Source: a virus (taxonomy: Duplodnaviria > Caudoviricetes). From it: DNA of 64,000 nucleotides. Made by a program: the position numbers and the translations under genes. The DNA is taken from IMG/VR virus record IMGVR_UViG_3300033068_001467, positions 23,794-87,793 of that record; one strand, 5' to 3'. Position 1 is the first letter of the stretch, and each line of letters starts with the position of its first letter. This document shows positions 3,194 through 55,014 of this stretch, one piece after another. The notes under the pieces are model-generated. The model was given only the letters and a program-made list of their open reading frames with translations. It did no database searches and had not been told where the DNA came from.

Positions 3194-3631
3194 ATTTGTG
3201 GGAATGTGGTGTTTTTTAGTTGAGGAAAATTATTTTATTGTGTGGGTGTAGTATTTTTAAAATTGTAAATATATGGTTAAAAGATTTTTAATTACGGGGG
3301 GTAATATTTTATTAAATAAAAATGATTTTACGAACATTTCTCCTGTATGACCAATATACAAGTCGGTCAGTCTAAAATTCATTTCTACTCCTACCCGTAC
3401 CTAATTATATCAATCGAAAATTATCGTGCCTAAAATCGAGTTTTTGTTTGGTTTTGAAAAAATGTTTTTTATTATGTACGTTTATAAGGTTTTTGTTTAT
3501 AATAATGTACATTTTGCCGTTTTTTTATCTTTTTTGTGCCGTTTTTATCTTACATTATTGTAAGAATTTACTTTATTGATTGTGTAGTTTGTCGATGTTT
3601 TTATGCAGTTAATCGATTTTATTAGGTTTTA

Positions 3632-7084: not shown

Positions 7085-7282
7085 ATGGTGGTAAAAGTAA
7101 AAATTATGATAACAGAAGGACAAAAAGTAAAAATTAATACAGGAACTTCGCCAACAAAAACAGGGTTAAATATCTTATCAACAACAGTAAAGAAAGTTTT
7201 ATCTAATGGTAATTTTATAACTTATGATTGCGAACCTTATTTTGGATATAATTTGTTTAACGTTAAAGATATTGTACTATGA
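7085..7282 (+). CDS. early-region hypothetical protein
   Basis: Small ORF. Confidence 0.5.
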   Translation: MVVKVKIMITEGQKVKINTGTSPTKTGLNILSTTVKKVLSNGNFITYDCEPYFGYNLFNVKDIVL

Positions 7283-14727: not shown

Positions 14728-16134
14728 ATGGAAAACAAAAGGAAATGTAACGCGTGTTTAGAAGAGAAAGAATTATGTGAATTTGGCAAGGATTCTAGTA
14801 AAAAAGGTGGGTATGATAACAAGTGTAAAAAATGTAAAGTCAATAAATATCCGTCCATAAAAATAAAAGAGCCCTTGGGTGTTATTTTTAAATGTAAAGC
14901 TTGTCTTGAAAACAAAGATGCTACTCTTTTTTACAAAAATAAAGCTTTTAAAAATGGATATAACACTAGATGTATTGATTGTATAAAAAATAATGTATAT
15001 AAAACAATAGAAATAAAAAAAGAGACTAAAAAATGTAATAGCTGTTTCTTAGATAAAAGCCTTAGTTATTTTAGTAAAAATTCAGGATTAGAAAGTTATA
15101 GGTCACAATGTAATGCTTGTAAAAATAAAGGCATAAAAGTACCAAAAAAAGAAATTACTATAAGTGAATATAAAATATGTAATGAGTGTAATTTAGAAAA
15201 ACATGTAGAAGAGTTTCATAAAACTAAGAAAAGGGATGGTTCAAACACAACAGCAGGTTTTTGTAAAAAATGTTTTAACTTTAAACAAAATAAACAAATA
15301 GAGTGTTTAAAATGTAAAGAATTAAAGACTAAATATTGTTTTGAAAAAGGTTCGACTACGTGTAAAAAATGTAACAAAGTTACAAAAGAAAAGGTTAAAA
15401 AAGAGAAGGATGTTATTCTTAAATTTTTACAATGTGTTGGTTGTAACATTACTAAGCCTATAAAAGATTTTACAAAAGATAAATCTTCTAAATTAGAAGC
15501 AAAAAGTTTATGTAAAGATTGTAGCAATGTCAAACGGTACGAAAAGTCAAAGAAAAAGGAAGTATTTAGTGCTAATGAAAAAAGATGCTCAAAATGTAGT
15601 ATTATAAAACCTTTGACAGAGTATTGTAGAGACAGAGATAAATTTAGAGCAGAGTGTAAAGATTGTAAAAAAGAATATAATAAAAGAACAAAAGATTTAG
15701 CAAGAGAATCATCAAGAAAAAGAGCAAGAAAAAAGTCAAAGACAGACAGTTTATATAGATTAAGTAATAACGTGAGAGGGTTAATACATCAAGCAATAAA
15801 GAAAAATAAAAATATTAAAAGGAAAAACACTCAAACTATAGTGGGGTGTACTTGGGAAGAGTTTAAAAACCACATTGAATCTCAATTTGAAAGTTGGATG
15901 AATTGGGATAACTATGGTAATGTTTGTGGGAATTATCCCGAGTATAATTGTTCTTGGGATTTAGACCACATTATTCCTATAAATTATGCAAAAACAGAGG
16001 AAGAGATATATTTATTGAATCATTGGAGTAATTTCCAACCACTTTGTTCAAAAGTTAATAGATGGGAGAAAAAGGGCACATTGTACCCTTGTTGTAATAT
16101 TGAGTTAAATATAACTGTAATATTGGAAAAATAA
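14728..16134 (+). CDS. HNH homing endonuclease with seven tandem zinc-ribbon repeats
   Basis: 14 CxxC motifs (7 pairs), then WDLDHIIP...NHWSNFQPLCSKVN HNH core. Confidence 0.85.
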   Translation: MENKRKCNACLEEKELCEFGKDSSKKGGYDNKCKKCKVNKYPSIKIKEPLGVIFKCKACLENKDATLFYKNKAFKNGYNTRCIDCIKNNVYKTIEIKKETKKCNSCFLDKSLSYFSKNSGLESYRSQCNACKNKGIKVPKKEITISEYKICNECNLEKHVEEFHKTKKRDGSNTTAGFCKKCFNFKQNKQIECLKCKELKTKYCFEKGSTTCKKCNKVTKEKVKKEKDVILKFLQCVGCNITKPIKDFTKDKSSKLEAKSLCKDCSNVKRYEKSKKKEVFSANEKRCSKCSIIKPLTEYCRDRDKFRAECKDCKKEYNKRTKDLARESSRKRARKKSKTDSLYRLSNNVRGLIHQAIKKNKNIKRKNTQTIVGCTWEEFKNHIESQFESWMNWDNYGNVCGNYPEYNCSWDLDHIIPINYAKTEEEIYLLNHWSNFQPLCSKVNRWEKKGTLYPCCNIELNITVILEK

Positions 16135-16377: not shown

Positions 16378-16724
16378 TAGAGCTTCAAAAAATAGACTGT
16401 AATTGTAATGATTGTATATTTATGGTTAGAGATATGGAGAAGTTTAAATTATCACTTAAAACGCATGAAAAGTGGCAATTAGACTATTTCAACGTAACTA
16501 AAGCTAATCTTAAAAAACGCGCCGAAGAAAGAAAACTAAAAGGAGAAACAGAAAAAGCTAATAACATACTAAAAGAGATTAGTAAAATGCGTTTTCAATT
16601 TGATAAAAGTACTTGCTCTATTAACTATGGAAATTGTACTAAGTTAAATAAATCTGTCTCTTTCATACCTAATATATTGCAAATTGAGACGCAACATTGT
16701 TTTAAACACCGAAGAGAACTATGA
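16374..16724 (+). CDS. Cys-containing hypothetical protein
   Basis: CNCNDC..YGNC..C motifs; ATGA-coupled start 16374. Confidence 0.65.
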   Translation: MIELQKIDCNCNDCIFMVRDMEKFKLSLKTHEKWQLDYFNVTKANLKKRAEERKLKGETEKANNILKEISKMRFQFDKSTCSINYGNCTKLNKSVSFIPNILQIETQHCFKHRREL

Positions 16725-16906
16725 AAACAATTCAAGACTATCAAAAACGGCACAATCACATAAAAAACTATTGTGAAAAAATGATTACTAAGTTTACAAG
16801 AACTTTAGAAGAACATCCTAATAGTTTTGATGCGCAAATTAAAAGAAAAGCATATCAGGATATTTTATATAAATTAGACTATGAAAATCTCGGCAATAAA
16901 AACTGA
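16721..16906 (+). CDS. hypothetical protein
   Basis: ATGA-coupled ORF. Confidence 0.55.
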   Translation: MKTIQDYQKRHNHIKNYCEKMITKFTRTLEEHPNSFDAQIKRKAYQDILYKLDYENLGNKN

Positions 16907-17090
16907 AAAGGAAAAAATAGAAATACAAACAAACAAAGGAAATATAATTCTAAGAAAGTTTGGTAAAGACTATATATCACAAACAGATATTCCTTATGGT
17001 TTTTCTAAAGAGAGTAAGTTATATTTACAGATAAAGAAATGTTTAATAGCAGGAGAATCTTTAGAGCAGTTTATAGGTTGCTGTTTTTAA
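16881..17090 (+). CDS. hypothetical protein whose stop codon is the TAAC of an attC-like site
   Basis: TAA 17088-90 is part of TAACGTT. Confidence 0.55.
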   Translation: MKISAIKTEKEKIEIQTNKGNIILRKFGKDYISQTDIPYGFSKESKLYLQIKKCLIAGESLEQFIGCCF

Positions 17091-17217
17091 CGTTTTGCGG
17101 CTATACGAGGTTGTTGCCGAATTAAAAACAGACCTCATAAACATAAACTAAATTTTAAAATTATGACTGAACTTTCAAAAAATGCCGAATTGCAACAATC
17201 TTGTATAACCGCTGTTA
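17088..17217. repeat. attC-like hairpin recombination site (array 1)
   Basis: TAACGTT-GCGGCTATACGAGGTTGTTGC ... GCAACAATCTTGTATAACCGC-TGTTA; 21-bp imperfect stem. Confidence 0.8.
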
Positions 17218-17447
17218 TAAGCCGTTTTTCTAACACAATTGAATTATGGTTAAAAAGCGATATTAACGGAAATTGGATAAGGAACGAAAAAAACACAAAT
17301 ACGTTTACCGACATTAAAGGCGGTAGAGCTTTGTATGTTTATGAAGACTGCATTAAGTATTGGGATGATATTAGACAACATTCTGGAGTTTGTGAATATA
17401 TGATTCCAACTTCAAAAATAGAGTTGTTTGATATACTCGGTGGTTAA
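17163..17447 (+). CDS. cassette-borne hypothetical protein (start codon inside the attC-like site)
   Basis: ATG 17163 lies in the hairpin loop; body bounded by GTTATAAGCCGTTTT / AAAATGGCTTATAAC. Confidence 0.7.
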   Translation: MTELSKNAELQQSCITAVISRFSNTIELWLKSDINGNWIRNEKNTNTFTDIKGGRALYVYEDCIKYWDDIRQHSGVCEYMIPTSKIELFDILGG

Positions 17448-17512
17448 AATGGCTTATAACTCCTATATATAAACAACCAATATAAACACTAATAAAATCA
17501 ATACTATAAGCC

Positions 17513-18343
17513 ATGAACATTCGAAAATACATAGACGACTATTCGAGAGATATAGAATTAGTTTATAACTCTAAAGCAACAAAAAATAATTATAAAAGCC
17601 AAATATGGTGTTTTTTAAATCACTTTAAAAATGAAGTTGAACCAAAATCAATAACAAATGCTAAAATAAAAGACTGGTTATTAGAGGCTAAAACTATAAA
17701 CACAAGAAAACATAGACTTTGTGCTTTGAATTCTTTTTATAAAATTACAATTGGTATGCCTTCTAAAATTCAGAAAATACCTTATCCTAAATCTGAAAAG
17801 AAATTACCAATAGTACTAAGTCAAGAGGAGGTTCAAAAAATGTTTGATGTGTGCGAAAATACTAAACATAAGGTTATTTTAGCTTTACTTTATTCTACTG
17901 GAATGCGAGTTTCGGAATTGATTAATTTGAAGTGGGAACATTTTGATAGGTCAAGAGGAATTATAAACATAATTGGTGGTAAAGGAAATAAGGATAGACA
18001 AGTAATGTTGTCTAATGATTTATATCCATTACTAGAAAAATATTGGAAAGAGTATAGGTCTTTTCCTTATGTTTTGAAAGGTCGGTTTTCGGAGCATTAT
18101 TCGGATAGAAGTGTTGGTCAAGTGATGAAACAATTAGCAAAAAAAGCAGGAATAAGTAAAAGAGTTTACACTCATTTGATGCGTCATAATTGTTTTACAC
18201 ATTTAGTAGAAAATGGTATTGATATTAATTTAATACAAAAACTAGCAGGTCATTCAAACGTTAAAACAACTTTGGTTTACACACATATATCACACAACTT
18301 AATAAGTAAAATAAGGTCACCTTTAAATTTAATAAAATTATGA
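17513..18343 (+). CDS. tyrosine recombinase (Xer/integron-integrase-like, no IntI insertion)
   Basis: STGMRVSEL (R), GKGNKDR (K), HLMRH (HxxR), GHSN (H), TLVYTH (Y): catalytic set intact. Confidence 0.92.
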   Translation: MNIRKYIDDYSRDIELVYNSKATKNNYKSQIWCFLNHFKNEVEPKSITNAKIKDWLLEAKTINTRKHRLCALNSFYKITIGMPSKIQKIPYPKSEKKLPIVLSQEEVQKMFDVCENTKHKVILALLYSTGMRVSELINLKWEHFDRSRGIINIIGGKGNKDRQVMLSNDLYPLLEKYWKEYRSFPYVLKGRFSEHYSDRSVGQVMKQLAKKAGISKRVYTHLMRHNCFTHLVENGIDINLIQKLAGHSNVKTTLVYTHISHNLISKIRSPLNLIKL

Positions 18344-23720: not shown

Positions 23721-23953
23721 AAACTATACCAACCATAAAAGGTATCAAGCCAATGACTATGTAACGATGAGTGTGGCTTTTATAGGGTTTTATAACTGCA
23801 TCTTTGGAATAATAAGAAAACATAGCGGTGACATTTGAAGAGATTATTCTCGCAATCCTATGGTATAAAAGATAATAATATAGGCTACCCCTAAAGATTT
23901 TTAGAATCTTCTTCGCAGAAATGTGTCGGGTCAGAGAAAGACGATTGGTAGTT
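23721..23953 (+). ncRNA. candidate structured RNA
   Basis: AAGCCA/TGGCTT, CTTTTATA/TATAAAAG, AAGATT/AATCTT, GCA-GAAA-TGT and end pairing AACTA..CCAA/TTGGTAGTT; no credible ORF. Confidence 0.4.
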
Positions 23954-38691: not shown

Positions 38692-38740
38692 TAACGTTAA
38701 GGTGCTTTGCGCTCGTTTTAATGGCGCAAAACACGTGTTA
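38692..38740. repeat. attC-like site (short)
   Basis: TAACGTT-AAG-GTGCTTTGCGC..GCGCAAAACAC-GTGTTA. Confidence 0.75.
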
Positions 38741-38803
38741 CCTGCTGGTGCGGTTAATTAACGAGAAATTTAAATTGAAATACTAAACAAAAAAATATTA
38801 AAA

Positions 38804-53904: not shown

Positions 53905-55014
53905 ATGAAACTAATAAAAACATATAAATTTAAACTTAAATTAACCAAGAAACAAGAAAAAACTTGTGAGTCTTGGCTTGATAGTTGTCGTAATTTATAT
54001 AATTTAGCATTAAGTGAACGTATTATGGTTTATGAGATGCGTAAAAAATCTGTTTCTAAATTTGACCAATATAATCAGCTTCCTGAACTTAAAAAACAAT
54101 TTCCTTGGTTTGCTGAAGTTTATTCAGACACCATTCAAGAAGTTTTAGACCGTTTAGATAAAACCTATCAAAACTTTTTCAGAGGTGGTGGCTTTCCTAA
54201 ATTTTCTAAAAAAGGACAGTATAACTCTTTTACTTTTAAACGTTCTTTTAAAGTTAATGAAAAGACTATAAAACTTCCAAAAATAGGTGAAGTTAAATAT
54301 TTTAATTCAAGACCTATGTTAGGCACACCCAAAACAGCTACAATAATAAAAGAAGACAATAATTGGTTTATTTGCATAACTTCTGAGTATGAAACACCTT
54401 TTGAAACTATTGAGATTGATAACCAAAATTCAATAGGTTGTGATATGGGTGGTATTCGCTTTTTAGCTTTATCAAATAACACTTTTATTGATTCTCCTGA
54501 ATTCCAAAAACCTTACGAAAAAGAATTAAGAATCTTACAAAGGAAACTTAGCCGTCAAAAGAAAGGTTCAAACTCTCGTGAAAAAACAAAACTAAAGATT
54601 AGAAAAATTTATAAAAAGATTTTTAATCAACGTTTAGATTTCTTACATAAGACATCAACTTTATTATCAAACCAATATTCTGCAATTTACATAGAAGATT
54701 TAAAACTTCAAAAGATGCAAGAAAACGGATTTTCCAATGTAAATAAAATGATGACTGATAAGAGTTTTGGAAATTTTAAAATTCTTTTATCTTATAAACT
54801 CAAAGAACGTGGTAAATATTTAGGTTTAGTAAATCCAGCTTACACATCTCAAACTTGTAACTCTTGTGGTACAATTGATAAAAAATCAAGAGTGTCACAA
54901 TCTGAATTTGTTTGTACGAGCTGTGGATTAATAACTAATGCTGATTTAAACGCTTCTAAAAATATCTTGTGGGAGGGCATCTCACAGAATACAAAACGTA
55001 AGACATTAGTCTAA
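53905..55014 (+). CDS. tnpB: RNA-guided endonuclease TnpB
   Basis: N-terminal HTH; RuvC D (GCDMG), E (YIEDL), D (NADLNA); CxxC..CxxC zinc finger. Confidence 0.95.
   Translation: MKLIKTYKFKLKLTKKQEKTCESWLDSCRNLYNLALSERIMVYEMRKKSVSKFDQYNQLPELKKQFPWFAEVYSDTIQEVLDRLDKTYQNFFRGGGFPKFSKKGQYNSFTFKRSFKVNEKTIKLPKIGEVKYFNSRPMLGTPKTATIIKEDNNWFICITSEYETPFETIEIDNQNSIGCDMGGIRFLALSNNTFIDSPEFQKPYEKELRILQRKLSRQKKGSNSREKTKLKIRKIYKKIFNQRLDFLHKTSTLLSNQYSAIYIEDLKLQKMQENGFSNVNKMMTDKSFGNFKILLSYKLKERGKYLGLVNPAYTSQTCNSCGTIDKKSRVSQSEFVCTSCGLITNADLNASKNILWEGISQNTKRKTLV

Follow-up and report, generated by a model that had tools for sequence, protein, structure and literature searches.

How a phage genome might come to carry, side by side, a folding DNA site, a small gene with sharp edges and a recombinase gene is the question raised by positions 17088-18343 of the DNA analysed here, a stretch of 64,000 nucleotides (the window; positions 23,794 to 87,793 of IMG/VR record IMGVR_UViG_3300033068_001467, a virus of the Caudoviricetes). 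This locus (locus 1) holds an imperfect inverted repeat (site E), a cassette with one small open reading frame (ORF) and the gene of a tyrosine recombinase (R1), and the original prediction, made from the DNA letters, took it for another copy of a cassette and recombinase system lying 21 kb away (locus 2). Integrons are the textbook bacterial device for gene capture, and a domain specific to their integrase, IntI, is held to enable the reading of folded attC sites. Based on the comparisons reported below, we consider it probable that locus 1 is a one-cassette integron-like platform, the second in this genome, most probably operated by short tyrosine recombinases that form a clade of their own. 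The support for this reading is comparative and structural. The carrier is a large phage of Bacteroidota: the relatives of the window, in both DNA and protein, are Flavobacterium phages and Bacteroidota metagenome-assembled genomes (MAGs), the G+C content of the window is 27-30%, the plus strand carries nearly all genes of the first 53 kb or so, and the parent viral record, judged 61% complete, is 87.8 kb long.

The site, the cassette boxes and the recombinase ORF lie where the original prediction had placed them (Table 1), with the heptamer TAACGTT at 17088-17094, the closing T-GTTA at 17213-17217 and two arms of 21 nt each (17097-17117 and 17192-17212), which are 86% complementary and 74 nt apart. 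Taken alone, the heptamer is not enriched in the window (13 matches for 9.6 expected), and its plus-strand copies at 7258, 21845 and 27245 have no hairpin. The structure of the whole site is far beyond chance, because a covariance model trained on 21 sites from other contigs, with the window excluded, recovers exactly four sites in the 64 kb, all on the plus strand: site E itself (17079-17227, 72.5 bits, E 7e-11) and the three long sites of locus 2, the four having E values of 1e-10 to 1e-11. This model describes long-type sites and misses the short type (the site at 38692 in the window, and those of Polaribacter phage P12002L), so that its counts are lower bounds. All five window sites share one format, consisting of TAAC, a spacer of 5-6 nt, a stem, a loop of either 11 or 72-78 nt, the second arm, 1-3 nt and GTTA, and across the traced loci the site sizes form two classes (47-96 and 112-129 nt). 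For 26 long sites, RNAalifold predicted 15 stem pairs, 13 of them with pair-keeping changes on both sides, and one G.T wobble in the stem is kept in 24 of the 26. Like attC sites, these are imperfect inverted repeats with AAC/GTT cores, in which structure is conserved over sequence.

The bases flanking the hairpins have distant partners. At all five window sites, the bases after GTTA are complementary to those before the next downstream TAAC, and not to the left flank of the site itself. We measured this rule on 44 cassettes, from chains traced in 25 viral loci encoding R1 homologs: over the ten bases beyond the core, the boxes match at 8.25 of 10 positions across the cassette, compared with 3.35 of 10 within the site, and box position 11 is a G.T wobble in 36 of the 44. 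As in the circular permutation known from integrons, the cassette end corresponds to the core with which the cassette begins, and not to the core of its own site. Since these covarying boxes lie 250-2000 nt apart, they can pair only in an excised circle or a loop. When the site of the locus-1 cassette is rebuilt over the circular junction, its folding energy (DNA energy parameters) is -28.2 kcal/mol on the plus strand (z -6.8) versus -20.2 on the minus strand; in its array context the corresponding values are -17.4 and -14.8 kcal/mol. The plus strand pairs better than the minus strand because of the wobbles, and these strand-specific wobbles, together with the more stable plus-strand fold, would suggest that the substrate is the plus strand, folded as a single strand.

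A second constant element is found beside the recombinase. At both window loci the last cassette ends in a TAAC with no hairpin after it, and a stretch of 51-52 nt leads from there to the recombinase ATG. The motif AAC-N3-6-ATATGTA (or a near variant) stands 49-53 nt before the ATG in 46 of 53 homologous loci, and the DNA to the left of the junction TAAC varies between these loci; by comparison, then, there is an attI-like arrangement next to the recombinase gene, with a fixed junction and variable cassette ends to its left. Homologs of R1 usually do have sites upstream, as expected from the original prediction: strict automatic tracing (loci with at least 700 nt upstream, with random TAAC sites on the opposite strand as controls) yielded at least one cassette in 24 of the 44 loci with enough upstream DNA, versus 7 of 504 controls. 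Recombinases less than about 45% identical to R1, belonging to other lineages, have neither motif nor arrays.

The edges of the locus-1 cassette can be read from its occurrence elsewhere. Close relatives of its cargo ORF were found in the protein collection and not in the viral collection, and neither this ORF nor its neighbours have a Pfam or PHROG match. Homologs of the cargo protein with 97, 89 and 87% identity occur in other contexts, and at the nucleotide level the cassette body (from GTTA to TAAC) is 97.6% identical to the window in contig L130 and 94.7% in L136 and L139. In all these contigs homology breaks exactly after the terminal TAAC, which is followed by the attI-like site and R1 in the window, in L129 by an attI-like site with a recombinase that shares only 43% identity with R1, by the hairpin of a 98-aa cassette in L130 and L133, by the hairpin of a C5 methylase cassette in L131 and L134, by yet another hairpin in L135-L137, and by unrelated sequence in L132. 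Contig L136 shares both the hairpin (92.6%) and the body (94.7%), whereas its flanking DNA differs on either side, and because homology stops at TAAC at both ends, we take the mobile unit to be window positions 17092-17460. A mini-cassette of 95 nt is common to L023 (in fourth position) and L024 (in first position, at the attI-like site), with homology again ending at TAAC on both sides. Additionally, arrays with R1-type recombinases contain homologs of locus-2 cargo, namely the C5 methylase (L016 and L017) and relatives of ORF 39792 (L025). These observations support the view that platforms with diverged recombinases draw on one cassette pool, and this comparison answers the question of cassette exchange raised in the original prediction; a direct move of a cassette between locus 1 and locus 2 of this genome was not seen. 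We also observed, in L023 (3871-4410), a second gene that looks like a distant tyrosine recombinase (about 30% identical to R1 and R2) and is carried by a 1.9-kb cassette.

R1 (17513-18343) and its counterpart at locus 2, R2 (41178-42011), are the only two tyrosine recombinases in the whole record and are 50% identical; with a paralogous recombinase and a real cassette at locus 1, the claim of a second platform of the same system was borne out. As for its distance, the 21 kb fits the interval between site E and the start of the locus-2 array (38692), the two recombinase genes being 23.7 kb apart. The catalytic residues R-K-H-R-H-Y are invariant among ten aligned homologs, as in the tyrosine recombinase superfamily. 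The best profile for R1 is the archaeal-type XerA NF040815 (193.5 bits, cut-off 220), followed by XerD (172 bits, cut-off 329.6) and, after the IntI profile, by XerC (166.7 bits, cut-off 335), so that all curated Xer cut-offs are missed, and the best structure match is to XerA (PDB 4a8e, E 7e-38). Against the IntI profile TIGR02249, R1 scores 168.9 bits (cut-off 265) in a split match that covers positions 4-181 and 235-313 of 315, and with VchIntIA (2a3v) it aligns over residues 17-179 and 241-318, about 61 IntI residues facing 18 in R1; the IntI-specific insertion (about 43 residues) is absent from both R1 and R2. We built a tree of 47 proteins (R1, R2, 21 array-linked homologs, 8 distant relatives, 12 Bacteroidota IntIs, IntI1, E. 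coli XerC and XerD, and a Flavobacterium MAG Xer), using a quick search under LG+G4 and Shimodaira-Hasegawa-like approximate likelihood ratio test (SH-aLRT) supports. The two recombinases do not fall in unrelated clades: R1, R2 and the 21 array-linked homologs form one clade (SH-aLRT 99), IntI1 and the 12 Bacteroidota IntIs a separate one (100), and E. coli XerC/D with the Flavobacterium MAG Xer a third (100). The link of the array clade to IntI has a support of 37, and deep placement is unsure, since the search was a quick one and R2 (for which no close relatives were found in the viral collection) sits on a long branch. The enzyme family is apparently an undescribed one, simpler than IntI.

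In the mechanism that we propose, R1 would recognise the plus strand of the cassette site folded on itself, the fold comprising an R-box helix (N10-TAAC with GTTA-N10, including the conserved G.T wobble), a bulge of 3-5 nt on the 5' side and an imperfect stem of 17-21 bp. It would then exchange strands, within TAAC, with the attI-like site located 52 nt upstream of its own start codon. Cassettes would enter next to the recombinase gene and would leave as circles, in which the distant boxes are joined and paired. The role of R1 as catalyst, the single-stranded nature of the substrate and the exact bond cleaved are parts of this scheme that we infer.

Table 1. Coordinates of the features of the two loci (window numbering).
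Feature	Position	Strand	Description
attC-like folding site E	17088-17217	+	TAAC, 5-nt spacer, 21-bp imperfect stem, 74-nt loop, T, GTTA
Mobile cassette unit	17092-17460	+	about 370 bases (hairpin, right box, cargo gene, left box); boundaries within TAAC at each end, from comparison with L136
Cargo ORF	17163-17447	+	94 aa; start codon in hairpin loop; first ~18 residues encoded by the site
Right box	17214-17228	+	GTTA + N11; 14/15 complementary to 17446-17460
Left box	17446-17460	+	N11 + TAAC; cassette end; junction with attI-like region
attI-like region	17457-17512	+	TAAC then TCCTATATATA; 52 nt from TAAC to R1 ATG; block before ATG common to locus 2
Tyrosine recombinase R1	17513-18343	+	276 aa; Pfam Phage_integrase E 6e-39 and N-terminal SAM-like domain; intact
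Locus 2 array	38692-41126	+	four cassettes (C5 DNA methylase and three small ORFs); final left box 41112-41126
Locus 2 sites	38692-38740 (short type), 39713-39840, 40200-40327, 40708-40832	+	
Locus 2 attI-like junction and R2	41123-42011	+	TAAC then GGTAATATATGTA; R2 at 41178-42011, 277 aa

The cassettes also have a defined polarity. The longest ORF lies on the recombinase strand, and reads toward the recombinase, in 57 of 59 traced cassettes, with the site 5' of the ORF; in integrons, the ORFs point away from attI and attC stands at the 3' end. Moreover, in 22 of 57 cases the start codon of the cassette ORF falls within the site itself, usually at a distance of 42-54 nt from the GTTA that follows and in the reading frame of GTT, and the leader of about 18 residues of the locus-1 cargo protein is common to an unrelated small protein of Flavobacterium phage snusmum6-1 and to a DNA methyltransferase of phage hemulen6-1. 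Because this N-terminal leader recurs on unrelated proteins, we regard the site as a portable start region, which is likely to affect translation as a secondary role. The loop and right arm that encode the leader correspond to window 17163-17216, L001 4088-4153 and L002 4079-4140, in three unrelated proteins of which one is a DNA methyltransferase.

A site that carries start codons could suggest that the hairpins are signals at the RNA level (terminators, processing sites or translation controls), with the recombinase as an unrelated neighbour, and in this respect the position of every site on the coding strand, the conserved wobbles (of the G.U type typical of RNA helices) and the ORF starts within sites would all be in order. 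Nevertheless, signals of this kind cannot explain boxes that pair across a whole gene, breakpoints between genomes that coincide exactly with TAAC, or the constant junction next to the recombinase, and a start codon in the loop does not fit an intrinsic terminator, which makes this explanation, in our judgement, scarcely credible.

The platform is not tied to one phage type. No flanking genes are common to the window and the 25 loci found via R1, which means that the unit sits in many phage backbones. These 25 loci say nothing on gain or loss at the exact place occupied in the window, for which relatives of the backbone, with a neighbouring 323-aa protein 55-66% identical, were obtained separately. 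These relatives differ from one another at the syntenic place, which lies upstream of their ORF 18822 homolog: L060 has two sites and a C-terminal recombinase remnant of 48 aa (3396-3542; 73% identical to R1), which looks like a platform in decay, and L062-L064 have neither array nor recombinase.

Several observations weigh against the platform reading. At this same syntenic place, L061 and L065 have an array and no recombinase, and the complete genomes of the cultured Flavobacterium phages snusmum6-1 and hemulen6-1, with at least 10 and at least 13 covariance-model matches within 8 kb, chained boxes and several methyltransferase cassettes, contain no homolog of the recombinase; since arrays exist without it, the enzyme is not needed to keep an array. 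Locus 1 itself has one cassette only. In the absence of the IntI insertion, recognition of a folded site by R1 is without structural precedent within integrons, in which the insertion of VchIntIA helps to bind the extrahelical bases of attC. Finally, the hairpins do not always travel with what follows them: between L130 (2200-2620) and window 17092-17460 the body is 97.6% identical and the hairpin only 63.5%, with a sharp mosaic boundary at GTTA, and in snusmum6-1 a hairpin 87% identical to site E has unrelated flanks and is joined to an unrelated body. With these separate histories, a single crossover point cannot explain the pattern.

A further pair of contigs (L016 and L019) has 93% identical hairpins and the same boxes with unrelated cargo, and from such cases hairpin and cassette body evidently have separate histories. 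Either TAAC and GTTA are both exchange points (for example, by occasional use of the other strand), or homologous exchange adds to a site-specific reaction. Carried to its limit, the second option would dispense with a dedicated site-specific enzyme, all shuffling being due to homologous or template-switch recombination at conserved intergenic hairpins. Shuffling of this kind has been proposed for the promoter-stem-loop modules of T4-type phages, and the recurrence here of one-family hairpins at 87-93% identity beside unrelated cargo provides stretches long enough for homologous exchange; the separate histories of hairpin and body also speak for it. However, homology always breaks at one set of four bases, even where the stems of the two sites are unrelated in sequence, the complementarity of the boxes across the cassette, with its fixed wobble, is the signature of a circular intermediate, and the recombinase is tightly linked at a fixed distance; we regard homologous exchange as the sole process as highly unlikely.

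Arrays found in phages without the short recombinase could also mean that the sites are ordinary bacterial attC sites served in trans by a host IntI, with the adjacent recombinase doing some other job (lysogenic integration or dimer resolution). Hosts can supply such an enzyme: we sampled 301 genomes from the phylum to which a Flavobacterium MAG belongs and found full-length IntI above the curated cut-off in 90, one of them 56.5% identical to IntI1, and classical integrases thus seem common in that phylum. Qi et al. 2023 (PMC9892861) described attC clusters without integrase in virulent phages, including methyltransferase cassettes in Polaribacter phage P12002L, and found that IntI1 recombined five of the six phage sites tested; the sites were read as parts of bacterial integrons, and no cognate phage enzyme or attI was named. 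The exception in their assays was P12002L_attC1, a site of the format studied here, which shares its spacing, its stem length and an identical 11-nt loop with our short site at 38692-38740; two further short sites of this format flank a methyltransferase gene in P12002L, according to our site scanner. A host IntI would also leave several features unaccounted for: arrays end in TAAC 49-53 nt from a recombinase ATG in 46 of 53 loci on unrelated backbones, in one genome each of the two paralogs is accompanied by an array of its own, the cassette genes are inverted relative to classical cassettes, and this phage record encodes no IntI. We consider service by a host IntI unlikely, and retain the reading of locus 1 as a platform with its own recombinase.

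The original prediction had taken the gene upstream of site E (ORF 16881-17090) for an older, fixed cassette, and this gene does stop on the TAA of the TAAC, but neither the scanner nor the covariance model finds a site to its left, and its best box partner (10/14, with a weak hairpin) is at chance level; a simpler explanation of the TAA is that it represents the distal half of the site at which insertion first took place. One kilobase upstream of the platform lies an ORF of 468 aa (14728-16134) with many CxxC repeats, which matches the PHROG families of endonuclease VII/HNH and of Lar-like restriction alleviation. Two more long-type sites occur on the minus strand of the parent record (genome positions 17944-18070 and 16598-16722, 5.7-7.2 kb before window position 1), with no recombinase nearby and no complementary partner for their boxes within 6 kb (best 9-10/14), and look like orphan or decayed sites. 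At 53905-55014, where gene orientation switches, an ORF of 369 aa resembles by eye a TnpB-type transposon-associated nuclease with a C-terminal zinc ribbon.

Beyond this locus, we lean slightly towards a broader proposition, namely that short Xer/XerA-like recombinases of Bacteroidota phages operate a genuine system of cassette capture and shuffling, acting on folded single-stranded sites although they lack the IntI domain, either as an independent invention or as a deep sister of integrons, with sites that double as translation start and leader, with both hairpin flanks as exchange points, and with diverged platforms (two of them in one genome) tapping one pool of counter-defence and unknown genes. 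If this is true, cassette chemistry is not tied to IntI, and the orphan attC clusters reported in virulent phages acquire a candidate enzyme. The methyltransferase content of Baltic Flavobacterium phages varies, and its presence has been linked to plating efficiency (PMC7077304), in a work that makes no mention of cassettes or hairpins; this may be how the phages of an abundant aquatic phylum exchange anti-restriction genes and accessory genes of unknown role. With two diverged platforms in one genome, and one cassette found beside recombinases that are 43% identical, specificity and cross-reactivity are directly testable. Additionally, a site that encodes the start of its cargo protein bears on the birth of cassettes, an open question for integrons too.

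Among known systems, integrons are close in several respects. Both have imperfect-palindrome sites conserved in structure over sequence, with AAC/GTT cores, cassettes of about 0.1-2 kb with mostly one ORF, and an insertion site beside the recombinase gene; the plus-strand order of cassettes, TAAC, attI and sense recombinase is the order on the integron bottom strand, and the geometry proposed here matches their bottom-strand reaction. The homogeneous site families with different cargo recall, in particular, the Vibrio repeats of sedentary chromosomal integrons. The differences are equally clear, since the phage enzyme is short, Xer/XerA-like, without the IntI insertion and in a separate clade, the phage cassette genes face the recombinase, with a site 5' of the gene which often supplies its start and N-terminus, pairing between the boxes extends over 14 nt and includes a fixed wobble, hairpin and body appear to recombine separately, and the carrier is a phage. 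In the literature searched in full text we found no description of a phage-borne integron analogue with a non-IntI enzyme, which is not proof of novelty. The phage attC clusters of Qi et al. share the site format, the DNA methyltransferase cargo, the Flavobacteriia hosts and the existence of arrays without integrase (as in snusmum6-1 and hemulen6-1, which, with two or more attC sites and no integrase close by, fit the definition of clusters of attC sites lacking integron-integrases, CALIN), whereas both window arrays adjoin a recombinase gene, which sets them apart from CALIN, and terminate in a conserved junction next to a member of a dedicated recombinase family.

The third system to be compared is Xer. 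XerCD integrates the CTX phage by one strand exchange on the folded plus-strand hairpin of attP, which shows that a folded substrate is accessible to a Xer enzyme even when the IntI domain is lacking, and the best profile and structure matches of R1 are to XerA. Unlike Xer, however, R1 falls below all curated cut-offs and in a clade apart from E. coli XerC/D and the chromosomal Xer of Flavobacterium, there is no dif-like 28-bp site, and the target would be a cassette array in place of a chromosome dimer or an entire phage genome.

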